This document shows, piece by piece, positions 6,285 to 61,439 of a stretch of DNA of 64,000 nucleotides. The notes under the pieces were generated by a model. It saw only the letters and a list, made by a program, of their open reading frames with translations, did no database searches and was not told the origin of the DNA. The DNA comes from Candidatus Omnitrophota bacterium (lineage in GTDB: Bacteria; Omnitrophota; Gorgyraeia; Gygaellales; Profunditerraquicolaceae), in NCBI GenBank assembly GCA_025453395.1, contig JALOQK010000002.1, positions 85,625 through 149,624 of the forward strand. The letters run 5' to 3'. The position numbers and the translations under genes were made by a program. Position 1 is the stretch's first letter; every line of letters starts with the position of its first letter.

Positions 6285-6488
6285 AAATAGTTTTAAGTAG
6301 TATAGTAATATATCATTTAGCTAAAAACCATAATTAAAAATTCAAAGTTTTAAATTTTACGCTGTGATTTTACGTTTTGCACTTTTAGCTTTACATTATA
6401 CAATGTATTTTTAATTTTACGCTATAGTTTTACGCTTTTCGCTTTACGCTTTTAGCTTATAACTTATAGCTTACAGCTTACAGCTAAT
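6285..6488. repeat. intergenic repeat element, copy A of the ~66 bp unit family (TTTTAATTTTACGCTATAGTTTTACGCTTTTCGCTTT..CAATGTATTTTTA), about two units plus an AGCTTACA octamer tail
   Basis: Near-identical units are also present at 8942-9136 and 10949-11070. Confidence 0.85.
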
Positions 6489-7211
6489 ATGCTAATTATC
6501 CCAGCAATAGACATTAAAGACGGCGCGGTAGTCAGGCTCTTGCAGGGCAAGTTTGACAAGAAGACTGTTTATTCTAAAGATCCGCTTAAAACCGCGAAGC
6601 ATTGGCAAAAACAGGGCGCCAGCGTCATTCATATTGTTGACCTTGACGGAGCAAACAGCGGGCAGTCTGTAAATTTGCCGATTGTCAAAGAGATTGTGAA
6701 AAATACAGAAGTAAAGATAGAGTTTGGCGGAGGTTTGCGCAGCCTAAGGGCGATAGAAGCAATTCTTGATGCTGGAATTTGGCGGGTGGTTTTGGGGACT
6801 CGCGCTGCCGAGGATAAAGAATTCCTTAAAGGCGCCTTTTCTAATTTTAAAGATAAGGTTATTGTCAGTGTTGATGCTAAAGACGGCGAAGTCTTAACCC
6901 GCGGCTGGGAAAAGCACAGCGGAATTACAGTCTTGGATTTTGTTGCCCAGTTAAAGGCAATAGGTTTTAAAAATTTAATCTTTACGGATACCTCTAAAGA
7001 CGGTATGCTAAAGGGGCCTAATCTTAAGGCGGTCAAAGAGCTTCTTAAAAAAAGCGGGCTAAAGATTGTGGCTTCCGGAGGCATAACCGCGCTTTCGGAT
7101 CTGGTGAAATTGCGCGCCCTAGAAAAAGACGGCGTGGAAGCTGTTATTATTGGCAAGGCCTTGTATGAGGGGAAGTTTACATTACAACAAGCGTTAAGAA
7201 GTCAAAAGTAA
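6489..7211 (+). CDS. hisA: 1-(5-phosphoribosyl)-5-[(5-phosphoribosylamino)methylideneamino]imidazole-4-carboxamide isomerase
   Basis: 240 aa (beta/alpha)8 HisA protein, N-terminus MLIIPAIDIKDG; its last codons lie in the AAGTCAAAAGTAAA repeat array. Confidence 0.92.
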   Translation: MLIIPAIDIKDGAVVRLLQGKFDKKTVYSKDPLKTAKHWQKQGASVIHIVDLDGANSGQSVNLPIVKEIVKNTEVKIEFGGGLRSLRAIEAILDAGIWRVVLGTRAAEDKEFLKGAFSNFKDKVIVSVDAKDGEVLTRGWEKHSGITVLDFVAQLKAIGFKNLIFTDTSKDGMLKGPNLKAVKELLKKSGLKIVASGGITALSDLVKLRALEKDGVEAVIIGKALYEGKFTLQQALRSQK

Positions 7212-7253
7212 AAAGTCAAAAGTAAAAAGGTAAAAGTAAAAAGTAAAAGACAA
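7197..7253 (+). repeat. tandem array of 14-mer (AAGTCAAAAGTAAA-like, 2x7) x4, overlapping the hisA stop codon
   Basis: Read directly from the sequence; the same AAGTCA-type heptamer recurs inside hisF. Confidence 0.85.
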
Positions 7254-8615: not shown

Positions 8616-8941
8616 ATAAAAAATTGTACTTGAAAGATCTGAAATTTGATGATAAGGGTTTGATTCCGGCGATTGTGCAGGATTATAAGACTAATGAAGT
8701 CTTGATGGTGGCTTATATGAATTTGGAGTCTGTAAAAAGAACACTAAAGTCCGGCAAGACTTGCTTCTGGTCGCGTTCGCGTAAAGAATACTGGGTCAAA
8801 GGCATGACTTCCGGGCATTTCCAATTTGTAAAATCCGTTTGGTATGATTGCGATATGGATGCGCTTTTGGTAAAGGTGCGCCAGGTGGGCGCTGCCTGCC
8901 ATACAGGGAACAGGTCGTGTTTTTATAGGAGAATCAAGTAA
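8612..8941 (+). CDS. hisI: phosphoribosyl-AMP cyclohydrolase
   Basis: 109 aa with the CHTGxxSCF zinc motif. Confidence 0.9.
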
Positions 8942-9136
8942 GCGAAAAGCGTAAAGCGAAAAACGCAAAACCATAATTTAAAATTCAAAATTTTTAATTT
9001 TACGCTATAGTTTTACACTTTTCGCTTTTAGCTTTACACTCTGCAATGTATTTTTAGTTTTTAATTTTGCACTGTAGTTTTACGTTTTTCGCCTTTAGCT
9101 TTACACTCTGCAATGTATTTTTAGTACTCTTAAGAT
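8942..9136. repeat. intergenic repeat element copy B: GCGAAAAGCG-rich arm, AAAATTCAAAATT motif, then two tandem ~66 bp units
   Basis: Units at about 8993-9058 and 9059-9124 are near-identical; the upstream arm is a reverse-complement match to the TTTTCGCTTTACGC cores. Confidence 0.85.
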
Positions 9137-10948: not shown

Positions 10949-11070
10949 AAGCGCAAAACGCAAAGCGAAAAATTTAAAACTATAATTCAAAATTAAAAAG
11001 TTTTTAATTTTACGCTATAGTTTTACGCTTTTCGCTTTTAGTTTTACGCTAACGTTAAGGAGGATGTTAA
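10949..11070. repeat. intergenic repeat element copy C (GCAAAACGCAAAGCGAAAA arm, AAAATTCAAAATT motif, one truncated ~66 bp unit)
   Basis: Shares a unit of 50 bp or more with copies A and B. Confidence 0.85.
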
Positions 11071-35874: not shown

Positions 35875-36708
35875 ATGGGTATAAAAAAATTCAGGCCCAC
35901 AAGTCCGTCACGGCGCTGGATCACTGGTCCGGATTTTACTGAGATTACTAAGGATTATCCCGAGAAGTCGCTTGTAACTGTTTTAAAGAGGACAGGCGGC
36001 AGAAATTCAAGCGGCCGTTTGACTGTCAGGCACCAGGGTGGCGGGCACAAACGTAAATTGCGCTTGATTGATTTTAAGCGCGATCTTTTGGATAAGCCGG
36101 CAAAAGTCCTTGCTATTGAGTACGATCCGAATCGTTCGGCAAGGCTGGCTTTAGTTGAATACCAGCCAAACCAGAAAAGATATATCATCGCTCCTCTAGG
36201 ATTAAATGTGGGAGATCAGATTGTTTCTTCAAATGACAAAGAAACAGAAATCAAGGTTGGCAATTGTTTGGTTTTGCGTTATATCCCTTCAGGCACGCTC
36301 ATTCATAATATTGAAATCCGCCCGGGCAAAGGCGCGCAGATTGTAAGAAGCGCTGGTTCAAGCGCGCAGATTATGGCCAAAGAAGGCGATTACGCGCATG
36401 TGCGTTTGCCTTCAGGCGAAGTGCGCTTAATAAGTTTAGACTGCCATGCGGTTATTGGGCAGGTGGGCAATGTTGAGCATGAAGCCATTTCTGTTGGCAA
36501 GGCCGGCCGTTCCCGTTGGATGGGTATTCGCCCGACAGTAAGAGGATTAGCCATGAATCCGGTTGACCATCCGCATGGCGGAGGCGAAGGAAAATCAGGG
36601 CAGGGTAATCCTCATCCAGTGTCCCCATGGGGCCAGCCGACTAAGGGTTACAAAACCAGGAAACCAAAGCGATATTCTAATAAATTTATAGTTAAAAGAA
36701 GAAAGTAA
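35875..36708 (+). CDS. rplB: 50S ribosomal protein L2
   Basis: 277 aa L2 with the conserved C-terminal block ([14 protein letters not shown]). Confidence 0.96.
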
Positions 36709-36711
36709 TTT

Positions 36712-36800
36712 AAAATTAAAAATGAAAAATCTAAAATTAAAATCTTTAGGAAATGGTTTTAAGGTAAATTTTGAATTTTTACTTTTTAATTTTGAATTTC
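36712..36800. mobile_element. ~89 bp AT-rich miniature inverted-repeat element (MITE-like): left arm AAAATTAAAAATGAAAAATCTAAAATTAAAAT, right arm reverse complement GAAATTCAAAATTAAAAAGTAAAAATTCAAAATTTAC, no cargo
   Basis: Imperfect ~30 bp terminal inverted repeats read from the sequence; sits in a 135 bp rplB-rpsS spacer of the S10 operon. Confidence 0.45.
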
Positions 36801-41989: not shown

Positions 41990-42468
41990 TGCGCCAGATA
42001 AATATTGAACAGCAGTCAGAATTCATAGAAAAAGTCATTGCCATAAACCGCGTCACTAAGGTTACCAAAGGCGGCAAGAAAATGCATTTTAGCGCCCTTG
42101 TGGTTGTCGGCGATACAAAAGGAAGAGTAGGGTTTGCCCTGGAAAAAGCCAATGAAGTAGCCGATGCCATAAGAAAGAGCCTGTCCAAGGCCAAGAAAAG
42201 CTTGATTAGAATCCCCATGGAAGGCACAAGTATTCCCCATGAGATTATCGGAGAATTCGGCGCGGCAAAAGTTTTATTGATGCCTGCTTCTGAAGGAACC
42301 GGCGTTATCGCGTCGGGCGCGGTGCGCGCGGTCTGTGAATCAGCCGGCATAAAAGATATCCTGACTAAATCATTAAGATCAAACAATCCTATTAACGTTA
42401 TTAAAGCCACTGTAAAAGGCTTAACTCAATTAAAGGCAGAAAGTAATGGACAAGAAAACACCGATTAA
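41989..42468 (+). CDS. rpsE: 30S ribosomal protein S5
   Basis: 159 aa S5. Confidence 0.95.
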
Positions 42469-43024
42469 GAAAAAACAAATGATTCCTGCGCAGGAGAAAA
42501 AAGCGGCTAAGCAAGTCAAAAAGCCTGCAGTGAGAAAGCCAAAGGCCAAAGCCAAAGCTGCTGCGGCAGTTTTAACTTTTGGTTTGCATAATCTAAAAGC
42601 CCCCTTTGGGTCTAATCACAGAAAAAAAATCTTAGGGCGCGGCCCCAGTTCCGGCCATGGTAAGACTTCTACCCGCGGCAGCAAAGGGCAGACTTCCAGG
42701 ACAGGCCGTGATTTTTATTTGGGGTTTGAAGGCGGGCAGACGCCTTTGATCCGCAGGTTCCCTAAACGCGGATTTACCAATATTTTCAAAAAAGAATTCC
42801 AGATCGTGAATCTGGAATCTTTAGCCAAGATTAATCAGGATATTATCACCCCTGAACTCTTAGAAGAAAAGGGTTTGATCAAGAATAAAGAAAAATTAGT
42901 TAAGATACTAGGCTTAGGAGAGCTGAAAAAAGCCATGACCGTCAAGGCCAGCGCTTTTTCCAAGCAGGCAGCAGACAAGATTATAGCCGCAGGCGGCAAA
43001 GCGCAAGTTATCCCGGTTCCTTAA
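42446..43024 (+). CDS. rplO: 50S ribosomal protein L15 with ~45 aa Lys/Ala-rich N-terminal extension (start uncertain; alternative ATG at 42479); no L30 gene between rpsE and rplO
   Basis: Core [41 protein letters not shown] is canonical L15. Confidence 0.88.
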
Positions 43025-43050: not shown

Positions 43051-44421
43051 ATGATAGCTAATACCTTTAACTTCAGCCCATTAATCAACAGCTTTCGCAT
43101 TCCGGATCTAAAAAAGCGCCTTTGGGTTACTCTGGGCCTTTTGGCTGTTTATCGCATGGGTTGTTATTTGCCTATTCCCGGGATTGACGGGATAGCGTTA
43201 GCGGAATTTATCAGTCAAATCTCCAAGTCTTCTGGTGGAGCGCTCTTTGGCATTATTAATATGTTTTCCGGCGGCGCCATGGAGAGGCTGACCATTTTTG
43301 CTTTGGGGATCATGCCGTATATCTCCAGCTCCATTATTTTGCAGCTTTTGACTGCGGTTATCCCGGCATTAGAAAAGCTGGCCAAAGAAGGAAAAGCCGG
43401 TTATCAAAAAATAAATCAGTTTACCCGTTATGGAACGGTAGTCTTGGCAGTTATACAATCATTTTTTATCGCCAAGTGGCTTGAGGGTTTGGGCAGGACC
43501 ATGCAGGATATGCCCAAGATTGTTTTAGCTCCGGGCTTGGGTTTTGAACTTTTAACAGTTTTAACTCTTACTACCGGAACGATTTTCTTGATGTGGCTGG
43601 GCGAGCAGATACAGGAGCGCGGCATCGGTAACGGCATATCGCTTGTTATTACAGCCGGTATTGTCTCGCGTATCCCGGCTGCCTTTCATCAGCTTTTTGT
43701 TTTATTGTCGCCCTTTAATCCCACTCGGCGGCAGCTGCAGCCGGCGGTATTACTGCTGATGGTTTTTCTTTTAGCGGCGGTAGTTTTCGCGGTTATACTT
43801 GTTACCCAGGGGCAGAGAAGGATCCCTGTGCAGTATGCCCGAAGAGTAGTAGGGCGAAAGGTTTTCGGAGGGCAGAGCACCTATATCCCCCTTAAGGTAG
43901 ACACATCAGGGGTTATCGCGATCATTTTTGCGCAGTCCATAATACTTTTTCCGGCGACTCTGGCATCATTCATACCGAATCCTGCGTTTCAGGGTTTTGC
44001 GCATGCTTTAACCCGCGGCAATGTCGGGTATTCTATAGTTTACGCTCTTTTAATTATATTCTTCTGCTATTTTTACACCGCGGTTGTTTTTAATCCGGTG
44101 GACTTAGCCGATAACATGAAAAAATACGGCGGGTTTATTCCGGGTATCCGCCCGGGAGTTTCAACCGCGGAATTCTTAGATTACACCATGACCCGTATTA
44201 CTTTGGCAGGCGCGCTATTTATCGCCTTTGTGGCGATATTCCCTGACGCGTTAATGGCATGGCTAAAGGTGCCGTATCTTGTCGCGTCATTTTTCGGCGG
44301 CACAGGCGTTCTTATTATCGTGGGGGTTATGCTGGATACGATCAAACAGCTTGAATCGCATTTGATGATGCATCACTACGAGGGTTTTATCAAAGGCGCA
44401 AGGATTAAGGGAAGAAGATAA
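43051..44421 (+). CDS. secY: preprotein translocase subunit SecY
   Basis: 456 aa with 10 TM segments and conserved SecY blocks. Confidence 0.96.
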   Translation: MIANTFNFSPLINSFRIPDLKKRLWVTLGLLAVYRMGCYLPIPGIDGIALAEFISQISKSSGGALFGIINMFSGGAMERLTIFALGIMPYISSSIILQLLTAVIPALEKLAKEGKAGYQKINQFTRYGTVVLAVIQSFFIAKWLEGLGRTMQDMPKIVLAPGLGFELLTVLTLTTGTIFLMWLGEQIQERGIGNGISLVITAGIVSRIPAAFHQLFVLLSPFNPTRRQLQPAVLLLMVFLLAAVVFAVILVTQGQRRIPVQYARRVVGRKVFGGQSTYIPLKVDTSGVIAIIFAQSIILFPATLASFIPNPAFQGFAHALTRGNVGYSIVYALLIIFFCYFYTAVVFNPVDLADNMKKYGGFIPGIRPGVSTAEFLDYTMTRITLAGALFIAFVAIFPDALMAWLKVPYLVASFFGGTGVLIIVGVMLDTIKQLESHLMMHHYEGFIKGARIKGRR

Positions 44422-44741
44422 AAATTAAAAATTCAAAATTAAAAATTAAGAAATAAAAGCAAAAAGATAAAAGCAAAAAGATAAAAGCAAAAAATATAGT
44501 AGTAAAAAAATTTAGTTATTTGCTCATTGGTAAATCAAATTTTCTTTTAAAGCTCAATAATTATTTATTTTTTATATTCTTAGGTTTTTAAATTTGAGAT
44601 TTTAGGTTTTTGTTTTAATTTTTTATTTTAAATTTTAAATTAACAACAGTGTTTTTTTTGATTTTAATGTTTTCTAATTTTGTTTTTATGTTTTTAATTT
44701 TGCATTTTTCATTTTAAACTTTAAATTAAAGAGGGTTTCTT
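44422..44741. repeat. 320 bp AT-rich noncoding element: left end AAAATTAAAAATTCAAAATTAAAAATT, a 14-mer tandem (ATAAAAGCAAAAAG)x3, right end reverse complement AATTTAAAGTTTAAAATGAAAAATGCAAAATTAAAA
   Basis: Seen in sequence; the ends resemble the terminal inverted repeats of the 36712-36800 element. Confidence 0.45.
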
Positions 44742-50736: not shown

Positions 50737-51990
50737 ATGCCGAAGACTGTCGCCGAGAAAATATTATCCAGCCATTGCGGTAAAGACGTTAAGGCGGGTG
50801 ATTTCGCGCTTTGCAATATTGATTTTACCTTTGGGCAGGATGGCACCTCTTCTATTATTATTGACCGGGTCAGGCAGATGGGTTTGTCTGAGTTAAAAAC
50901 AAAGTTTTGCATGGTCATTGATCATAGCGCGCCATCTCCCAGCGAAGGGGTATCGCGCGTGCATAAAAAGATGCGCGAATTTTCCTCAGAATTTAAGGCC
51001 TTTCTTTATGATATAGGATGCGGTGTCTGCCATCAGGTGATTCCCGAATCAGGCGAAATTCTCCCCGGAGACCTGGTTTTCGGAGCGGATTCGCATACCT
51101 GCACCTATGGCGCTCTGGGGGCCTTTGCTACGGGTGTCGGTTCCACAGATTTGGCCATTGCCTTAGCTACGGGGAAAAACTGGCTTAAGGTTCCCCAAAC
51201 CATAAAAATATCCGTAAAAGGGAAATTTCCAAAAGGCGTATTTGCAAAAGACCTGATTTTGCGTATAATAACAGATATAGGAGCTGACGGGGCTACTTAT
51301 CGCGCGGTTGAATTCTGCGGCAGCGCCATTGACAGCTTAAGCATGGACGCCAGGTTTACCATTTGCAATATGGCAGTAGAGATGGGGGCTAAAGCAGGCT
51401 TTATGCCTGTGGATGAGAAAACTGTTTCCTGGCTTAAGGCAAGATTAAAAGGCAAAAGAAAAATCCAGAAGATTGCCGCCGACCCAGGGGCAATCTACGA
51501 AAAAGTTTTGGAATATGATGTTTCAAGATTGAAACCCCAAGTATCGCGTCCGCACACCGTGGACACGGCTTTAGATATCACTAAATTCAAGAACGTTAAA
51601 ATTAACCAGGCATTTTTAGGCACATGCACAAACGGAAGATTAGAAGATTTAACAGTTGCCGCTAAGATTTTAAAAGGAAGAAAAGTTTCCAGCGGCGTGC
51701 GTTTGATAATCGCGCCAAGCTCAAGAGATGTTTTAGAAAAAGCTTTAAAAGAAAAAGTAGTGGATGTTTTTGTTAAATCAGGCGCGATCATCGTGGCGCC
51801 CGGTTGCGGGCCTTGCGTGGGTACTCACAATGGCGTGCCCGCAGACGGGGAAGTAGTCATCTCAACGGCAAACAGGAATTTTAAAGGGCGCATGGGAAAT
51901 CCAGCTGCCTTTATTTATCTGGGGTCAGCGGCAACGGTAGCAGCTTCGGCGGTTGAAGGCAAGATCGCTGATTGCCGAAAATATTTATAG
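50737..51990 (+). CDS. aconitase-superfamily dehydratase large subunit, LeuC/HacA (3-isopropylmalate dehydratase / homoaconitase) type
   Basis: 417 aa type-2 LeuC-like protein with cluster-ligand cysteines. Confidence 0.85.
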   Translation: MPKTVAEKILSSHCGKDVKAGDFALCNIDFTFGQDGTSSIIIDRVRQMGLSELKTKFCMVIDHSAPSPSEGVSRVHKKMREFSSEFKAFLYDIGCGVCHQVIPESGEILPGDLVFGADSHTCTYGALGAFATGVGSTDLAIALATGKNWLKVPQTIKISVKGKFPKGVFAKDLILRIITDIGADGATYRAVEFCGSAIDSLSMDARFTICNMAVEMGAKAGFMPVDEKTVSWLKARLKGKRKIQKIAADPGAIYEKVLEYDVSRLKPQVSRPHTVDTALDITKFKNVKINQAFLGTCTNGRLEDLTVAAKILKGRKVSSGVRLIIAPSSRDVLEKALKEKVVDVFVKSGAIIVAPGCGPCVGTHNGVPADGEVVISTANRNFKGRMGNPAAFIYLGSAATVAASAVEGKIADCRKYL

Positions 51991-51991
51991 A

Positions 51992-52062
51992 CACCCGGCG
52001 CAATTTGATGCGCCGGTGCGCAATTATCAGGCAACACCCGGCGCAATTTGATGCGCCGGTGT
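51992..52062 (+). other. two tandem copies (43 bp period) of a GC-rich hairpin CACCCGGCGCA-ATTTGA-TGCGCCGGTG between the dehydratase large-subunit gene and pilT
   Basis: 8 bp perfect stems with 6 nt loops read from the sequence; the second is followed by a pyrimidine-rich stretch. Confidence 0.55.
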
Positions 52063-52086
52063 GCCCTTTCTGGGCAAGGAGGACTA

Positions 52087-53133
52087 ATGGAAATTAGGGA
52101 TCTTTTATTGCAGTGTATTGAAACCAAATCATCAGATCTGCACTTGACTGAAAATGAGCCTCCGCTTTTACGTATTGACGGACGCATCAATCGCACCAAA
52201 AGTAGTATTCTGGGCAGAGACGATCTTAAGAAAATGATCTATAGTATTTTGACCAGCGCCCAGAAAGAAGTGTTTGAGCGCGACCTGGAGCTGGATTTAT
52301 CATTGGCGCTTCCCGGATTAGACAGGTTCCGGGTGAATGTGCATTTGCAGAAGGGTTCTGTGGAAGCAGCCTTTCGCCGTGTGCCTCTGGATATCCCCAG
52401 TATTCAGGATTTGGGCCTGCCGCCAATAGTTTTTGATCTGGCGCGCAAACCCAACGGTTTATTTTTAGTTACCGGGCCAACCGGAGTAGGTAAGACCACA
52501 ACTTTAGCCGCGATAATTGATTTGATCAATTCCGAGCGCGAATGTTTGATGATGACCATAGAAGACCCGATAGAATTTATCCACGCGAATAAGAAAAGCG
52601 TGATCAAGCAGAGGGAAGTTTACGCGGATACGCGTTCTTTTGCCGAAGCGCTTAAGCATACATTGCGCCAGGACCCTAATGTTATTGTGGTTGGCGAAAT
52701 GCGCGATCTGGAAACTATCTCTACAACTTTGACTGCCGCGGAAACAGGGCACTTGGTATTGGCAACTTTACATACCCCTGATGCTCCGCAGACCATTCAA
52801 AGAATTATAGACGTATTCCCTCCGCATCAACAGCAACAGGTTAAATTACAGCTTGCCGACTGTTTGCAAGGAGTTGTCTCGCAGTTATTGCTGCCCAAAG
52901 CTGACGGGCACGGAAGAGTGCTTGCCACAGAGATAATGGTTGCCACCGCTGGTATCCGTAATCTTATCCGCGAGCAGGAAGTTGAGCAGGTCCCGACACT
53001 TATTCAGACCGGGAGCCAATTCGGGATGAAGACCATGGATAAATGTCTGAAAGAATTATTCCAGCAGGGGCTTATTTCTTTGGACACTGCCATGTCTAAA
53101 GTCAAGAACGTGGAAGAATTCAAGCATCTTTAA
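52087..53133 (+). CDS. pilT: type IV pilus retraction (twitching motility) ATPase PilT
   Basis: 348 aa; start MEIRDLL is preceded by an AAGGAGG RBS. Walker A GPTGVGKTTT, Asp box VGEMRD and His box ATLHT are present. The ORF track's 52048 start is upstream and in-frame. Confidence 0.88.
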   Translation: MEIRDLLLQCIETKSSDLHLTENEPPLLRIDGRINRTKSSILGRDDLKKMIYSILTSAQKEVFERDLELDLSLALPGLDRFRVNVHLQKGSVEAAFRRVPLDIPSIQDLGLPPIVFDLARKPNGLFLVTGPTGVGKTTTLAAIIDLINSERECLMMTIEDPIEFIHANKKSVIKQREVYADTRSFAEALKHTLRQDPNVIVVGEMRDLETISTTLTAAETGHLVLATLHTPDAPQTIQRIIDVFPPHQQQQVKLQLADCLQGVVSQLLLPKADGHGRVLATEIMVATAGIRNLIREQEVEQVPTLIQTGSQFGMKTMDKCLKELFQQGLISLDTAMSKVKNVEEFKHL

Positions 53134-53147
53134 AAAGGAGAGTTTCT

Positions 53148-53648
53148 TTGCGTTTAGAAGGAAAGGCCATAAAGTTAGGCGATGATATCAACACGGATTT
53201 TATTATTTCCGGCCGCTACAAATTCGCCATTACCGATATGAAAGAATTGGCCAAGCATATTATGGAAGATATCGACCCAGCATTCCCATCCAAGATTACG
53301 CCCGGTCAATCTATCCTGGTTGCTGGAAGAAATTTCGGCATGGGCTCATCGCGCGAGCAGGCGCCATTGGTAATAAAAGAATCCGGAATAATTGCTGTGG
53401 TTGCTAAATCTTTTGCCAGGATATTTTATCGTAACGCTTTTAATATAGGATTAGCCCTGGTGGAATTGGATACTGATAAAATAAAAGAAGGCGACGCCTT
53501 AGATATTGATTTAGATAAAGGCGCTGCCAGGAATGTTTCATCCGGCGTTGATTTTAAAATCTCCCCCTTGCCGGAATTCATGCAAGCTCTTTTACGCGAA
53601 GGCGGAGTGGTAAATTACGTTAAAAAGTATGGCGAGTTAGAAATTTAG
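53148..53648 (+). CDS. aconitase-superfamily dehydratase small subunit, LeuD/HacB type
   Basis: 166 aa type-2 LeuD-like protein (swivel domain). Confidence 0.85.
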   Translation: MRLEGKAIKLGDDINTDFIISGRYKFAITDMKELAKHIMEDIDPAFPSKITPGQSILVAGRNFGMGSSREQAPLVIKESGIIAVVAKSFARIFYRNAFNIGLALVELDTDKIKEGDALDIDLDKGAARNVSSGVDFKISPLPEFMQALLREGGVVNYVKKYGELEI

Positions 53649-53695
53649 AATTAAAAAATAAAAATTCAAAATTAAAATACAAAATGCTGGTATAA

Positions 53696-54076
53696 TTGCT
53701 AATGGAAAATAAAGGGGCAAGTTTTCAGAGTAATTATGATATAAAAAACAGGACCTACGCTTTCTCGGTTAGTATTGTTAATTTTGTTTCTGATTTACCA
53801 AAAGATAACGCAACTCACATTATTTCTAATCAATTGTTGGCTAGTGCTACAAGTGTAGGTGCTAATGTTATTGAAGCGCAAGCATCAAGTTCACGCAAAG
53901 ATTTTACAAATTTCTTGAATCATTCTTTGAAATCAGGAAATGAGACAAAATATTGGCTATGTTTGTTACGGGATACTGGCAGAGCCGAATATCCTAAAGT
54001 CAGCAAGCTTATTAATGAAGTAACTGAAATTAATAATATACTTGGAAAAAGCATTATTACTTTACGTAATAAGTAG
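53696..54076 (+). CDS. four-helix-bundle protein (TIGR02436-like; '23S rRNA intervening-sequence protein' family)
   Basis: 126 aa; the segment SNQLLASATSVGANVIEAQASSSRKDFTNFLNHSLKSGNETKYWLCLLRD matches the family's hallmark. Confidence 0.75.
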   Translation: MLMENKGASFQSNYDIKNRTYAFSVSIVNFVSDLPKDNATHIISNQLLASATSVGANVIEAQASSSRKDFTNFLNHSLKSGNETKYWLCLLRDTGRAEYPKVSKLINEVTEINNILGKSIITLRNK

Positions 54077-54124
54077 CATTTATGTTTTTAATTTCTAATT
54101 TTTAATTTTTCATTTTTAATTCCT

Positions 54125-55216
54125 ATGCCCTACACCATTACTCTTATCCCAGGCGACGGAATTGGCCCGGAAGTAGCCAGGGCCGCGCAAGCTTGTATTG
54201 ACGCAACCGGTGTTAAGATAAGCTGGGATCAGGCGCAAGCCGGCCAAGACGCCTTAGAGCAATGCGGGGAACTTCTTCCTGAAGCCACCCTTTCATCTAT
54301 CAAAAAAAATAAAATTGCATTAAAAGGTCCGATCACCACTCCTATTGGAAAAGGTTTCCGCTCGGTGAATGTGGCTATTCGTCAGGCTTTGGATCTTTAC
54401 GCCTGCGTGCGTCCGGCAAAATCGTATCCGGGGGTAAAAAGCCTGTATAAAGATATCAATCTGGTGATTGTGCGCGAGAACAGCGAAGACCTTTACGCCG
54501 GTATTGAATTTGAGCAGGGCAAGCCCGAGACCGAAGAGCTTATCAAAAAAATAGATTCCTATAGTGTTAAGAAAATCCGCCCTGATTCAGGCATTTCCAT
54601 TAAACCCATTTCGCTTTATGCCGCCGAAAGGATCGTAAAGTTTGCTTTTGAATACGCCTTGGCAAATAACCGCAAGAAAGTCACCTGTGTGACTAAAGCC
54701 AATATCATGAAATATACCGACGGGCTTTTTCTGGCGGCGGCAAAGGGGGTTGCTCAAAGCTATGAAGGCAGGGTATTATTTGAAGAGGCCCTGGTGGATA
54801 ATATGGCAATGCAGCTTGTGCAAAGGCCGCACTATTATGATGTGCTGGTGCTTCCTAATCTTTATGGGGATATTCTTTCGGATCTTTGCGCTGGATTAAT
54901 CGGAGGTTTAGGAATTGCTCCGGGAGCCAATATCGGAGAAAAGATAGCGGTATTTGAGGCAGTGCACGGCTCTGCTCCTAAATACGCTGGTTTGAATAAA
55001 GTCAACCCTAGCGCGATGATCTTGTCCGGGGTTTTGATGTTGCGCCATCTTGGAGAAAATGAAGCTGCCAACCGCTTGGAACACGCCTTAAGCGCAGTAC
55101 TTAAAGAAGGCAGATTTGTTACCTATGATTTAAAACCGCATCGCGATGACCCTTCGGCAGTGGGCACAAAACAAATGGCAGAAGCGGTAATAAGAAAGTT
55201 ACATGAGGTTACGTGA
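54125..55216 (+). CDS. beta-decarboxylating dehydrogenase of the isocitrate/homoisocitrate/isopropylmalate family; substrate-site motif [18 protein letters not shown] resembles the isocitrate/homoisocitrate type more than LeuB
   Basis: 363 aa with [10 protein letters not shown] and a Ser-containing substrate loop. Confidence 0.8.
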
Positions 55217-55222
55217 GGTTAA

Positions 55223-55660
55223 GTGATGTTACATCAGGTTGCTAAAAGCACAGTATCAAAAACAGCGCCTTATGAAAAACTCAAGTTTTATCAGGATATT
55301 TGCCAGATTCGCAAGTTAACCTATCAAATAACAGAGAATATTGTTCGTTCACATATGCGTTTAGCTTCTCAGATGAGAGATGCCGCGCGTTCTGCTAAGC
55401 AAAATCTAAGAGAAGGATATCGCAAAGGCACATTAGGAGAATTTATACATAGCATAAAGATAAGTCAGGGGTCTTTAGCAGAGTTAAGTGGCGACATGGA
55501 AGATTGCTTGGAAGACGGTATTATTCAGAAAACTGATTTTGATATTTTTATGAAGCTTTATCGTAGTGCAGACTATATGTCAAATAGGTATTTAATTTCG
55601 TTATATAAGATAGAAAAAGAAGGCACATGGCGCACTTTCGCTAAGCGTAGTGCTAAATAG
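55223..55660 (+). CDS. four-helix-bundle protein (TIGR02436-like), second paralog
   Basis: 145 aa (YEKLKFYQ.., GSLAEL..) of the same family as 53696-54076. Confidence 0.7.
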   Translation: MMLHQVAKSTVSKTAPYEKLKFYQDICQIRKLTYQITENIVRSHMRLASQMRDAARSAKQNLREGYRKGTLGEFIHSIKISQGSLAELSGDMEDCLEDGIIQKTDFDIFMKLYRSADYMSNRYLISLYKIEKEGTWRTFAKRSAK

Positions 55661-55664
55661 TCTT

Positions 55665-55828
55665 CCTGATTGTTGAATATTGTTTTTGCTCTTTGTTTCT
55701 AAGCAACCTCATTTAACATTATGTAACTTTATGCAACCTCATTTAACCTGATTGTTGAATATTGTTTTTGCTCTTTGTTTCTAAGCAACCTCATTTAACA
55801 TCATGTAACTTTATGCAACCTCATTTAA
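55665..55828 (+). repeat. 82 bp direct tandem duplication (2 copies, 1 mismatch) plus a partial third start; each unit contains two GCAACCTCATTTAAC sub-repeats
   Basis: Read directly from the sequence. Confidence 0.95.
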
Positions 55829-55839
55829 CCTGATTTTCT

Positions 55840-56757
55840 ATGAAGATCTCTATTATCGGCGCTGGTAACGTTGGCGGCACCGCAGCTCTTCGCTTAGCGC
55901 AAGAAAATATCGGCGATATTTTCTTGTTTGATATCGCCGAGAACTTAGCCCGCGCCAAGGCCTATGATTTAGCTGACGCGCGGCAGGCCTTGGGCATGGA
56001 TTATCATGTTACCGGCACATCTGATTTTGAACAGCTTAAGAATTCTGATATCGTGGTTATTACTGCAGGCCTTGCGCGCAAACCCGGGATGACCCGTGAG
56101 GACCTAGCCAGTAAAAACGCTTCTATTTTAAAACAAGTTTGCCATAATATCCGTCAGTATTGCCAGCGCGCGGTTGTTGTAGTGGTGACTAATCCATTGG
56201 ATTTAATGACCCGTGTTTGCATAAATTCGCTTAATTTTAAAAAAACAAGTGTGTTAGGCATGGGGTTAACTTTGGATGCTTCGCGTTTTGCAAATCTAAT
56301 CGCCGAGCAATTTAATGTCCCGGTGTCCAAGGTTGTGCCTTGTGTTATCGGAAGCCACGGTGAGGGCATGATGCCGTTAGCAAGATTTACTTTTGTTAAC
56401 GGCACCTGCCTGAAGCAACTGCTTCCTGAAGAGGAAGTAAACCAGCTTATCAGCCGTACCATTGGCCGCGGGGCAGAGATTGTTTCTTTGTATGGTACGG
56501 GAAGCGCTTATTACGCTCCCTCGGCGGCGATAGCAGAGTTGGTCAAGGCTATAGCGCAGGATAAAAGATGCGTTTTGGGAGTATCTTGTTATCTTAACGG
56601 GCAGTATGGGGTAAAGGATGTTTGCGCAGGGCTGCCTTGTGTTATCGGCAAGAATGGCATTGAAGAGATTGTTCAGCTTGATCTTGATCAGAATGAAAAA
56701 GAATCTTTCCTTAAGGCTTGTCAGGGCATAAAAGAGCAGTTTTCTAGAATTCAATAA
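55840..56757 (+). CDS. mdh: malate dehydrogenase (LDH-like MDH family)
   Basis: 305 aa with a GAGNVGG Rossmann motif; Arg in the GLARKPGMTR substrate loop indicates MDH rather than LDH. Confidence 0.82.
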   Translation: MKISIIGAGNVGGTAALRLAQENIGDIFLFDIAENLARAKAYDLADARQALGMDYHVTGTSDFEQLKNSDIVVITAGLARKPGMTREDLASKNASILKQVCHNIRQYCQRAVVVVVTNPLDLMTRVCINSLNFKKTSVLGMGLTLDASRFANLIAEQFNVPVSKVVPCVIGSHGEGMMPLARFTFVNGTCLKQLLPEEEVNQLISRTIGRGAEIVSLYGTGSAYYAPSAAIAELVKAIAQDKRCVLGVSCYLNGQYGVKDVCAGLPCVIGKNGIEEIVQLDLDQNEKESFLKACQGIKEQFSRIQ

Positions 56758-58034: not shown

Positions 58035-58265
58035 ATGATTGAAGTTAAACTTCCAGAGTTGGGCGAGGGGATCAAGCAGGCTACAGTTTCTTACTGGTTT
58101 TTTCAGGAAGGGCAAGCTGTAAAAGAAAAAGAAGAATTAGTTGAACTTACTACCGACAAAGCCACTTTTAATCTTCCCAGTCCGGCAAGCGGAGTATTAA
58201 AACAGGTGCTTATTAAGGAAGGCGAAACCATCGCCATCGGCACCGTCTTGGCAATAATATCGTAG
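58035..58265 (+). CDS. free-standing lipoyl/biotinyl attachment domain protein (resembles an E2 N-terminal lipoyl domain; possibly a truncated E2)
   Basis: 76 aa with the lipoyl-lysine motif TDKAT; the stop codon lies inside the left terminal inverted repeat of the downstream element. Confidence 0.7.
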   Translation: MIEVKLPELGEGIKQATVSYWFFQEGQAVKEKEELVELTTDKATFNLPSPASGVLKQVLIKEGETIAIGTVLAIIS

Positions 58266-58506
58266 ACGCTTTAGCTAACCCCATGTAGCACAATAACTTA
58301 TGAAACAAATACGCCATAGAAAAGGGGCACTTTGCCTTTCTGCCCCGAAAGGGCGCACTTGGCATTCATTTTTGCCAAGGTGCAATAGGCAAAGGTGCGT
58401 CCCAGTAATTAGCGTACTTTGCCTTCCTGTGATTTTAGTTTTTTAAACCCTACCCATATTTGTTTTGTAATCTTTTGTGTGGCATAGTATTAGCTAAAGC
58501 GTCTAC
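58263..58506. mobile_element. 244 bp element bounded by perfect 17 bp inverted repeats (GTAGACGCTTTAGCTAA / TTAGCTAAAGCGTCTAC) with an internal ~80 nt GC-rich extended hairpin (58324-58403); MITE or structured ncRNA
   Basis: Inverted repeats and nested complementary blocks (GGGGCACTTTGCC..GGCAAAGGTGCGTCCC; GCGCACTTGGCA..TGCCAAGGTGCA) read from the sequence. Confidence 0.55.
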
Positions 58507-58521
58507 AATGAATTATTTTAC

Positions 58522-60195: not shown

Positions 60196-60783
60196 ATGCA
60201 TTATTTACAGCTTAGCAAGTTAAATAAGAAGCCTTATTTTGATATAGGCCAAATAGCCGATACCTTAGGGATTACGAAGCCTTCGGCGCGGGTTATTGCC
60301 AGCCGTTATGTAAAACAAGGGATACTAATTAGGCTCAAAAACAATTGTTATGTTACTTCCGAGCGCTGGCAGGCGCTTGATTCAATGGCTTTGTTTTCTC
60401 TTGCCAATATCCTGCAGGTGCCTTCGTATATATCATTTCTTTCTGCTTTAGGCTTTCATGAAATATCTACCCAGGTTGCGCGTGGCGTTATTGAAAGTGT
60501 TTCTCTTAAGCGTTCCCGTTCTATCCGTGTAAAAGAGCAAGAATTTGTTTATTATAAACTTAGGAAAAAACATTATTTCGGTTTTCATAAGAAAGATGGT
60601 ATTTTTATGGCAACTGCCGAAAAGGCGCTTGCCGACGCTTGTTATCTTTATTCATTAAACCGTTATGCGCTTGATTTTTCCGCGCTTAACCTTTCCCGTT
60701 TAAATAAGCGCGAATTATCAGGTGTCATCAGGCATTACCCAAAACGTACGCAGCAGATAGTGAAAAAAATATGCAAGATTTAA
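60196..60783 (+). CDS. AbiEi-like antitoxin/transcriptional regulator (type IV TA / abortive infection)
   Basis: 195 aa with an N-terminal wHTH-like region; overlaps the downstream AbiEii-family gene by 13 nt. Confidence 0.5.
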   Translation: MHYLQLSKLNKKPYFDIGQIADTLGITKPSARVIASRYVKQGILIRLKNNCYVTSERWQALDSMALFSLANILQVPSYISFLSALGFHEISTQVARGVIESVSLKRSRSIRVKEQEFVYYKLRKKHYFGFHKKDGIFMATAEKALADACYLYSLNRYALDFSALNLSRLNKRELSGVIRHYPKRTQQIVKKICKI

Positions 60784-61439
60784 TTAAGCAGGAACAATTT
60801 GAGTTAGAGGTATTGGATAAGTTAAATACCGCGCGCCTGTTGAATAAACTTATTTTCTGCGGCGGCACGATGCTTAGGCTTTGTTATGGGCTCCAGAGAT
60901 TTTCTGTAGATCTTGATTTTTGGCTGGCGCGCAAGGTCTCCCACGCGAAACTTTTTAAAGAATTAAAAGATATTCTATCCGCTTCCTATACAATAAGAGA
61001 TAGTGCTAATAAATTTCACACTATTCTTTTTGAAATTAAATCAAGCCGTTATCCGCGCGCGCTAAAGATCGAAGTGCGAAAACAGGCAAGAAAGGTAAAA
61101 GCCGATACTGCCATTGCCTATAGCCAATATTCTAATACTCAAGTATTTCTTAAAGTTCTGTCTTTGCAAGATATGATGCGCAATAAGGCAGAAGCTTTCC
61201 TAAGCCGTAAAGAAGCCCGGGATATCTTTGATATGGAGTTTTTGTTTAAGAAGGGGATTTTGTTGGGGATCCCTAAGAAGGATATCGGCAAGATACTTTC
61301 TACCCTTGATGCGTTGACAAAGAAAGATTATCAGGTAAAATTAGGTGCGCTACTTTTGCCCGAACAGCGCGCCTATTACACAAAAGAAAATTTTAAGATT
61401 TTAAGAATGGCGTTAGAGGAGCGTATTTCTTCCATATAA
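60771..61439 (+). CDS. nucleotidyltransferase AbiEii/AbiGii toxin family protein
   Basis: 222 aa; CGGTMLRLCYGLQRFSVDLDFW matches the family's GG..DxD nucleotidyltransferase signature. Confidence 0.72.
   Translation: MQDLIKQEQFELEVLDKLNTARLLNKLIFCGGTMLRLCYGLQRFSVDLDFWLARKVSHAKLFKELKDILSASYTIRDSANKFHTILFEIKSSRYPRALKIEVRKQARKVKADTAIAYSQYSNTQVFLKVLSLQDMMRNKAEAFLSRKEARDIFDMEFLFKKGILLGIPKKDIGKILSTLDALTKKDYQVKLGALLLPEQRAYYTKENFKILRMALEERISSI

Follow-up and report, generated by a model that had tools for sequence, protein, structure and literature searches.

Four-helix-bundle genes between complementary repeat arms in an Omnitrophota operon: putative intervening-sequence-type elements of intercistronic spacers

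The stretch of DNA analysed here (the window, 64,000 nt) comes from a Candidatus Omnitrophota metagenome-assembled genome (JGI 3300037461) and carries two genes for four-helix-bundle proteins of the TIGR02436/PF05635 (S23p) family, gene 1 and gene 2, within a long gene array whose members are all co-directional. The order along this array is rplQ, an aminotransferase gene (aat), an aconitase-type large subunit gene (acnL), pilT, a LeuD-type small subunit gene (acnS), gene 1, an isocitrate/isopropylmalate-type dehydrogenase gene (icd), gene 2, mdh and lpd. Each of the two genes lies between complementary repeat arms, and gene and arms together are referred to as element 1 and element 2. The features of the locus are as follows.

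50737-51990: aconitase-type large subunit gene (acnL)
52048-53133: pilT
53148-53648: LeuD-type small subunit gene (acnS)
53626..53700, + strand: 5' arm of element 1, an A-rich array with a period of ~7 nt, core 53638-53688
53702-54076, + strand: gene 1, four-helix-bundle protein of 124 aa, pI 9.3; alternative TTG start at 53696
54065..54129, + strand: 3' arm of element 1, T-rich complement, with 14-nt (2x7) tandem units at 54085-54126
54125-55216: isocitrate/isopropylmalate-type dehydrogenase gene (icd)
55192..55266, + strand: 5' arm of element 2, five ~10-nt units (GTTACATGAG, GTTACGTGAG, GTTAAGTGAT, GTTACATCAG, GTTGC...)
55226-55660, + strand: gene 2, four-helix-bundle protein of 144 aa, pI 9.5; alternative GTG start at 55223
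55665..55828, + strand: 82-nt tandem duplication (copies 55665-55746 and 55747-55828), 99% identical, giving the 3' arm of element 2 twice
55679..55748, + strand: 3' arm of element 2, proximal copy, pairing with the 5' arm over 57 bp (-58.0 kcal/mol, z -7.1)
55761..55840, + strand: distal copy of the same arm, pairing with the 5' arm over 62 bp (-61.5 kcal/mol, z -8.2) and ending at the mdh ATG (55840)
55840-56757: mdh

Element 1 (about 0.5 kb) and element 2 (about 0.65 kb) occupy exactly the gap from the upstream stop codon to the downstream start codon. The 5' arm of element 1 holds the final codons and stop of the LeuD-like small subunit gene (KYGELEI and stop) and its 3' arm terminates on the icd ATG at 54125, the inverted repeat proper (53638-53688 / 54075-54125) spanning 51 nt with 78% complementarity. 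The 5' arm of element 2 encodes both the end of the dehydrogenase (IRKLHEVT and stop) and the first 14 codons of gene 2, and its inverted repeat (55198-55264 / 55763-55829) spans 67 nt with 73% complementarity. As RNA, the arms of element 1 form a duplex of 56 bp (-38.5 kcal/mol, z -5.3) and those of element 2 one of 62 bp (-61.5 kcal/mol, z -8.2), neither of which is matched by any of 200 dinucleotide shuffles, and the minimum-free-energy folds of both elements enclose the whole open reading frame (ORF). The window has 36 copies of the motif AAAATTCAAAATTAAAA, where 3.3 would be expected. The first-pass annotation had placed both genes inside the block of dehydratase small subunit, dehydrogenase and mdh, each bracketed by inverted-repeat-like sequence, with a duplicated 82 bp unit after gene 2 and a left flank of gene 2 overlapping the last dehydrogenase codons, and all of this is present as it described. 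Promoter and terminator sites were no more frequent in 53100-56000 than in shuffled sequence; a candidate TGGTATAAT box at 53688-53696 was absent from the promoter scan output and was dropped. An Rfam scan of the window returned two tRNAs and no other known family.

The gene order rplQ-aat-acnL-pilT-acnS-icd-mdh-lpd is conserved in Omnitrophota species representatives, with acnS/icd spacers of -1 to 24 nt and icd/mdh spacers of 12 to 36 nt; the same spacers measure 476 nt and 623 nt in the window. Two further close relatives have spacers of 0 and 19 nt, a 4-nt ATGA overlap also being seen, and tight junctions with conserved order are found at nine related loci (L003, L004, L007, L008, L028, L044, L046, L173 and L175; L-numbers label loci from related genomes or metagenomes). 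Altogether, alignment to orthologous operons shows empty sites in at least 12 relatives, and no four-helix-bundle gene lies within 5 kb of icd at any of the 80 orthologous loci of 80 species-representative genomes. Since both junctions are near-abutting in most relatives, gene 1 and gene 2 are insertions and not native members of the operon, as had been proposed. The pilT gene was considered as a third insertion and rejected, because its position is conserved across Omnitrophota; it is a native member even though it splits the two dehydratase subunit genes.

One relative contig (Ga0438306_0000937) carries a gene 2 orthologue (65-72% identity) at the same icd/mdh junction, bracketed by the same GGTTAnnTGA decamers, together with a decayed gene-1-type element in the acnS/icd spacer. 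The closest homologue of gene 1 (60%) lies in the secY/adk spacer of this contig, at the very place where the window has an ORF-less unit (44415-44721). The window and L083/L171 show reciprocal filled and decayed sites. At icd/mdh, shared descent is inseparable from recurrent insertion, because the four closest genomes are about equidistant from the window (50-81% identity per gene). Unrelated non-coding fillers, some with inverted repeats of their own, occupy the acnS/icd, icd/mdh and pilT/acnS junctions of other relatives (L005 1092-1390, L007 6078-6220, L008 6078-6323, L173 2848-2980 and L175 2886-2999), so that small elements of various kinds seem to land at these junctions generally. In a related genome, a GIY-YIG (T5orf172-like) gene lies within a ribosomal-protein operon directly upstream of rpmC (L083 1-239) and may be a free-standing insertion of the homing-endonuclease type.

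The bracket was examined across the gene-1 subfamily at 80 metagenomic loci, with 76 four-helix-bundle genes and 111 control genes from the same loci, the score being that of the best local alignment of a gene's upstream flank to its reverse-complemented downstream flank. The median score is 27.5 for four-helix-bundle genes (30 or more in 42%) and 16 for ordinary genes (30 or more in 1%; Mann-Whitney p = 2e-25), so that the flank similarity, which the first-pass annotation had conceded might be chance AT-richness, is not due to chance. Every left arm is A-rich on the coding strand, and every right arm T-rich; the start codon falls inside the left arm or at most 15 nt from its inner end at 33 of 49 loci, and the right arm begins a median of 15 nt past the stop codon. 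The arms are tandem arrays: the best autocorrelation lag is 7 or 14 in 50 of 52 arms (about 9 of 52 in shuffles), and Tandem Repeats Finder (TRF) detects arrays in 134 of 152 flanks, with a period of 7, 14 or 21 in 110 of these 134 (82%). The heptamer itself varies by locus (AAAAGTC, AAAGCGT, AAAATGA, AAATCCT and others).

The arms of the gene-2 subfamily consist of about five units of ~10 nt with a GGTT(A/G/T)C core at 10 of 10 loci examined, and often encode the N- and C-terminal tails of the protein. These ten loci derive from Omnitrophota, WOR-1 and Edwardsbacteria, and the elements sit at murB/ftsA, larB/larC, Iso_dh/asd and other gene pairs. Arm type thus co-varies with protein subfamily, heptamers accompanying the gene-1 type and GGTT(A/G/T)C decamers the gene-2 type. 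A general count of five units per arm was considered and rejected: Nostoc and the decamer subfamily conform to it, the metagenomic heptamer set does not, its TRF sub-arrays having a median of 3.6 copies over a broad range. In L201-L204 (401-1990) a gene-2-type element directly follows an Iso_dh-family gene 33% identical to the window dehydrogenase, in an operon that differs from that of the window (leuD-like, Iso_dh, element, asd); its occurrence after Iso_dh genes twice could be coincidence or target preference. Gene-2-type elements also occur among toxin-antitoxin modules, as in L205 (1-1377, 2181-2800), where one lies between an AbiEii pair and an MNT/HepT pair.

Pairing between the arms differs between the two strands. 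Arm mismatches are more often of the G.U type than of the A.C type (70 against 39, p = 0.004), the sense duplex is stabler than the antisense duplex at 56 of 76 loci (Wilcoxon p = 1e-6), and among eight further elements folded the sense strand is better in six, including all five gene-2-type loci of other genomes and element 2 of the window. Stems across the folded elements measure 35-62 bp. Genes neighbouring related elements are co-directional with the element ORF in 86% of cases upstream and 76% downstream, and both window ORFs lie on the operon strand. The strand-asymmetric G.U pairing and the co-orientation with host transcription point to a role of the arms at the RNA level and not to classical terminal inverted repeats.

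The same architecture is found in cultured organisms, where tblastn against plasmids recovers genes annotated as four-helix-bundle genes from Nostoc, Planktothrix, Bernardetia, Treponema and Chlorohelix. Carriers include N. punctiforme PCC 73102 (pNPUN02, NPUN_RS35560), N. flagelliforme (COO91_RS42325 and COO91_RS42395) and Planktothrix PCC 7805. All six genes examined stand between inverted heptamer arrays that are perfect or nearly so, with the following units.

Nostoc flagelliforme: (TAATTCG)x5, perfect 35/35 complement
Nostoc punctiforme PCC 73102: CAATTCG
Planktothrix: AATCCCC / AATCGTA, between drmD and pglX
Bernardetia: GATTAGT
Treponema: GAAAGNG
Chlorohelix: GATGAAT, between helicase and methylase genes

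Both annotated four-helix-bundle genes in a 50-kb stretch of the N. flagelliforme plasmid lie inside inverted pairs of strong period-7 arrays. The stretch also has three ORF-less inverted pairs and two single period-7 arrays, and seven of the eight best arrays have 4.7-4.9 copies. The loops of the ORF-less pairs contain no ORF remnants. Two of these pairs (L200 23260-23405 and 34425-34510) have the loop motif AATTTTGAATTAATTAATTC in common, which is also noted at 42405-42500; this common motif suggests that ORF-less derivatives have a conserved inner sequence.

Movement is indicated by a 15-member family of elements (at least 82% nucleotide identity in the ORF) that occupies at least six unrelated contexts. 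Two members, L114 and L139, are 93.7% identical, and the similarity runs from TTAGAAATCCTAAA to TTAGGATTTAGRATTT, which are the outer arm ends. Within one shared context the distal arrays vary in unit number and sequence, and the left arm of one element recovered from two samples (L201 and L204) differs by 29 nt. The ORFs are under purifying selection (dN/dS 0.1-0.25). No target-site duplication, for which the first-pass annotation had proposed to search the boundaries, is visible at the acnS/icd, icd/mdh, L114 or L139 junctions, although the low-complexity ends could hide short ones, and no recombinase or recurrent transposase was seen in element neighbourhoods, the sole element ORF being that of the four-helix-bundle protein. 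The sole transposase-like neighbour seen in any context is a 210-aa gene of L184-L191 (e.g., L184 4550-5182), found 1.6 kb downstream of a gene-2-type element and matching Y1_Tnp (IS200/RAYT-like) no more than faintly.

These observations bear on classical DNA transposition, in which the arms would be terminal inverted repeats for an external transposase, the gene its cargo and the ORF-less hairpins described below MITEs (miniature transposable elements with inverted repeats). Like such transposons, the elements have terminal inverted repeats and discrete ends, the unit boundaries being sharp at the outer arm ends in otherwise unrelated contexts (L114/L139); their ORF-less copies are multi-copy and dispersed, and orthologous junctions vary in presence and absence. 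Transposition of this kind nevertheless appears rather unlikely, given that no target-site duplication is visible at the four comparable junctions, that the arms are tandem arrays of variable length without fixed termini, that the type of arm follows the subfamily of the protein and that arm and ORF overlap, both unexpected for cargo, and that no transposase recurs in the neighbourhoods. It would also leave the sense-strand pairing bias unexplained.

The window contains several ORF-less relatives of these elements, all in the same orientation.

6318..6470, + strand: ORF-less element of the gene-1 arm type, 3' arm duplicated
7197..7248, + strand: solitary A-rich heptamer array (AAAAGTC/AAAAGTA units) overlapping the 3' end of gene 6489-7211, with no partner arm
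8941..9107, + strand: hairpin with gene-1-type arms and no ORF, 40 bp, z -3.9, 3' arm duplicated
10950..11050, + strand: hairpin with gene-1-type arms and no ORF, in the spacer of rpsP and yajC-like genes, 40 bp, -36 kcal/mol, z -6.1
36707..36798, + strand: AT-rich heptamer hairpin with no ORF, in the rplB/rpsS spacer, 35 bp, z -3.2
44415..44721, + strand: ORF-less unit of A-arm, 205-nt loop and T-arm between secY and adk, pairing no better than in shuffles (z -1.2)

Three window spacers have a 37-nt segment in common, identical in two of them and with one mismatch in the third, against an expectation of no such repeat. The ORF-less hairpins match the arms and first codons (MQNxNSKF) of ORF-bearing metagenomic elements at 86-100% over 21-51 nt, the hairpin at 8941..9107, for instance, matching L118 at 93% over 41 nt, and because of this homology they are read as internal-deletion derivatives. 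Tandem duplication of the 3' arm, the 5' arm remaining single, is seen at three independent elements (6343-6460, 8991-9107 and 55665-55828), with copies at 6343/6409, at 8991/9058 and as the 82-nt unit beside gene 2. The first-pass annotation had regarded the two genes as cargo of small non-autonomous insertion elements. The insertion elements stand, whereas passive cargo and the non-autonomous label do not: arm type co-varies with the protein, the start and tails of the ORF fall within the arms, and purifying selection acts on the ORF, so that the gene is the element's own signature gene, and the non-autonomous forms are the ORF-less hairpins.

The derivatives also bear on the possibility that the genes are ordinary operon furniture, that is, native accessory or regulatory genes accompanied by generic stabiliser or terminator hairpins. 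Gene-free AT-rich hairpins with the same motif do occur in several other window spacers, and one relative has the gene 2 orthologue at the same icd/mdh junction. This explanation is largely refuted and highly improbable, as both junctions are empty in most relatives, the same element family sits between secY and adk, murB and ftsA, larB and larC, drmD and pglX and other gene pairs, control genes of those loci have no such flanks, the homology of the ORF-less hairpins to element arms takes in the first codons, and the terminator-like signal is not above background.

The two proteins belong to different subfamilies. Gene 1 scores 85.7 bits against TIGR02436 (cut-off 24) and 74.9 bits against PF05635 (cut-off 33.8), and gene 2 scores 49.1 and 58.4 bits, both above the curated cut-offs. 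BLASTP detects no similarity between gene 1 and gene 2, which are therefore treated as two subfamilies with their own arm types, and tblastn finds no further copy of either in the window, including 44466-44670. By sequence match, the nearest solved relatives are BT_0352 (2rld, E = 2e-19) for gene 1 and XCC0516 (2gsc, E = 6e-6) for gene 2. An AlphaFold monomer model of gene 2 (pLDDT 89.1) has 2gsc as its best fold match (root-mean-square deviation 1.5 Å, TM score 0.9 to the target), followed by 2rld and, more distantly, by Avd. Residues 1-10 and 141-145 of the model are of low confidence, and the N-terminal one of these tails is arm-encoded, since the left arm encodes the first 14 residues. Solved PF05635 relatives have five chains per PDB entry, and XCC0516 is described as a homopentamer (PMC4990558). 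PF05635 has been called functionally uncharacterised (PMC11270868, PMC10053308). PADLOC and PHROGs searches gave no matches, nor did a search of viral contigs with the gene-2 profile or of plasmids with gene 2.

The fold raises the question of kinship with diversity-generating retroelements (DGRs). Avd is the nucleic-acid- and reverse-transcriptase-binding adaptor of DGRs, and like the proteins studied here it has a four-helix-bundle fold (4dwl and 8ub7 are among the gene 2 fold matches, with a TM score of about 0.8 normalised to the target), is basic and has pentameric relatives. PF05635 is moreover common near DGRs (PMC10053308), and gene 1 matches the Avd profile NF033474 weakly. It is nonetheless hardly credible that the two genes are Avd accessory proteins of a DGR: sequence identity to Avd is 8-11%, the NF033474 match of gene 1 reaches 19.2 bits against a cut-off of 80 and gene 2 is unmatched, and no reverse transcriptase (RVT-family) gene was called within 10 kb on either side. 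No template/variable repeat pair is found, the repeats being flanking inverted arrays only, and the contexts are housekeeping operons.

The closest known counterpart of the two elements is the ORF-bearing intervening sequence (IVS) of 23S rRNA, known from Coxiella burnetii, Leptospira, Brucella and Xanthomonas (PMC4990558). These IVSs likewise carry a sense ORF of the S23p/PF05635 family, have complementary termini forming a long stem around it, show tandem heptamers of variable copy number in the 5' arm just before the start codon, exist in ORF-less and ORF-bearing versions side by side, and are sporadically distributed in a manner that suggests horizontal spread. In Coxiella the IVS has a 28-bp terminal inverted-repeat stem around the S23p ORF that is cut by RNase III, and its 5' arm has two to three tandem heptamers in a number that varies between strains (PMC4990558); the 29-nt difference between L201 and L204 is a comparable case of variable copy number. 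In contrast with the 23S IVSs, which lie in rRNA helices 9, 25 and 45, the elements described here lie in intercistronic spacers of protein-coding operons, and none of 80 sampled related elements is inserted in rRNA (Rfam; only tRNAs were found). The arms are also longer than the Coxiella stem (35-62 bp against 28 bp), and one subfamily, the gene-2 type, has decamers. A tRNA gene, coding for another post-transcriptionally processed RNA, lies 16 nt beyond the end of the 3' arm of a gene-1-type element in L147 (1903-2033).

We therefore favour the reading that both genes are the ORFs of IVS-type selfish insertion elements that live in operon spacers, and we give it, including the mechanism that follows, a probability of roughly 55%. 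By homology with the Coxiella and Leptospira IVSs, and in line with the strand-asymmetric pairing, each element would be transcribed with the operon in the sense orientation, its arms would pair into an imperfect duplex of 56-62 bp that buries the start region of the ORF, and RNase III would cut this duplex, so that the insert would leave the polycistronic RNA with the neighbouring cistrons intact. Whereas RNase III excision is established for the Coxiella IVS, here it is supposed by analogy. Excision of the insert from the RNA would account for the restriction of tolerated insertions to spacers (or rRNA helices) and for their mostly sense orientation. More speculatively, the basic and probably pentameric protein may recognise its own arm units and serve the spread or maintenance of the element; binding to its own repeats is suggested by the co-variation of arm type, the basic pI (9.3 and 9.5) and the kinship with Avd as an RNA- and reverse-transcriptase-binding pentamer.

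Several observations weigh against this IVS-type reading. Neither a visible target-site duplication nor a recombinase accompanies the elements. Several registers of the low-complexity arms pair about equally well, so that arm complementarity may in part be a by-product of one unit present in opposite orientations. Element 1 of the window is a tie between strands (sense -50.6, antisense -50.4), the L083 element favours the antisense duplex, and a C-to-T bias on the non-template strand could contribute to both the G.U excess and the sense-duplex bias. RNAalifold predicts the long-range helix across 14 related elements, with pairs so nearly invariant that covariation is uninformative. The Coxiella ORF is decaying and apparently untranslated, whereas the ORFs here are under purifying selection. 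Finally, after a cut by RNase III the downstream cistron would start from a new 5' end that lacks protection, and that this is harmless is an assumption.

Some of the same evidence could be accommodated by a protein-driven DNA element, in which the arms would be iteron-like binding arrays for the encoded multimer, the multimer would promote copying or recombination into new sites or into existing ORF-less hairpins, and RNA pairing would be incidental. The co-variation of unit length and core with subfamily would be expected, the ~10-nt period of the gene-2 arms equals one turn of the DNA helix, the 4.7-4.9 copies in seven of the eight best Nostoc arrays and the roughly five units of gene-2 arms stand beside pentameric relatives, and the reciprocal filled and ORF-less states in two genomes fit an exchange of ORFs between homologous arms; an old proposal of Ralph and McClelland, as cited in PMC4990558, also counts in its favour. 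We hold this to be unlikely, if a serious contender. Heptamers differ widely even between orthologous copies, which argues against sequence-specific recognition of the distal units, copy number is broad in the metagenomic set, the four-helix-bundle fold is without known catalytic activity, and the 7-nt period does not match the helical repeat of DNA.

Outside rRNA, the IVS-type elements resemble two further kinds of repeat. The tandem heptamer repeats of cyanobacteria are called short tandemly repeated repetitive (STRR) sequences. Contiguous heptamers, including TTTTGAA, are reported from Nostoc PCC 7120 (bioRxiv 10.1101/2022.06.06.494920), and GGGAATC heptamer arrays of Xanthomonas form about 70 convergent pairs (PMC4692102); both reports give no gene association and leave an "unidentified partner". 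Like the arms described here, these cyanobacterial and Xanthomonas repeats are intergenic 7-nt arrays, often in inverted pairs and often beside start codons, and the Nostoc unit TTTTGAA/TTCAAAA also occurs in this window. Unlike in those reports, the arrays here bracket PF05635 genes, as with both such genes in 50 kb of the N. flagelliforme plasmid, and the gene-less heptamer pairs look like derivatives of the same elements. REPIN/RAYT systems (PMC3116915) similarly have short repeats in inverted pairs that form hairpins and are dispersed in intergenic spacers, and a single-copy-type gene flanked by inverted repeats that presumably disperses them. They differ in that the RAYT gene encodes a Y1 transposase, whereas the flanked gene here is a PF05635 four-helix-bundle gene with no known catalytic activity; that the arms here are tandem arrays and not one palindromic unit; and that one genome can hold many different four-helix-bundle genes with individual arms.

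In the open-access literature S23p and heptamers are mentioned together only in the Coxiella paper and only within rRNA (PMC4990558), and no description of a general arm-ORF-arm unit outside rRNA was found there, the subscription literature lying outside this search; the unit appears to be an undescribed cross-phylum class of elements. A broader reading, which we advance tentatively and consider on balance doubtful, is that the S23p protein is the long-missing partner of bacterial tandem heptamer repeats. A ring-shaped pentamer may bind the tandem units of its own arms (about five per arm in Nostoc and in the decamers), candidate ligands being the five-copy arrays (TAATTCG)5 and (GGTTACNNNN)5, and may thereby control processing or translation of the element or drive its copying; inverted heptamer arrays without a gene, which number thousands across many phyla, may be footprints of this one class of elements; and the classical rRNA IVSs may be the few insertions that landed in rRNA.

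Some other features of the window were also noted. Between the aconitase-type large subunit gene and pilT (51991-52076) lies a 43-nt unit in tandem duplicate, each copy with the GC-rich palindrome CCGGCGCA-ATTTGA-TGCGCCGG, which is of the repetitive extragenic palindromic (REP)-like type, unlike the AT-rich arms. The spacer between a biotin-lipoyl gene and an HTH_17 gene (58259-58509) holds a 53-nt inverted repeat, 77% complementary, with a 145-nt loop and a strong fold (-95 kcal/mol over 294 nt); a similar motif, TAGCTAACCC, is found in the pilT/acnS spacer of the relative L173, and the two may represent another small repeat family. An AbiEii toxin gene with a 195-aa partner upstream lies at 60196-61439.

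For 30 years rRNA IVSs have been described as what is left of some unknown mobile element, and tandem heptamer arrays have gone unexplained in cyanobacterial and other genomes for about as long. Our results suggest that the S23p gene, the rRNA IVS and the heptamer arrays are three views of one class of arm-ORF-arm elements, whose normal habitat would be operon spacers, including those of ribosomal, division, tricarboxylic acid cycle, cas and defence operons. The ORF-bearing IVS architecture, tandem heptamers included, thus helps to explain the scattered distribution of the family, much as the first-pass annotation had surmised. Eighteen such genes inside cas operons, for example between cmr3 and cmr2, were read by Zhang et al. 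as a functional link (PMC3936711); this placement fits operon hitch-hiking, and the reported associations of the PF05635 gene with CRISPR-Cas and defence loci are reframed accordingly. The arm-ORF-arm structure provides a recognisable unit for annotation pipelines, and both the function of the protein and the origin of IVSs become directly testable.

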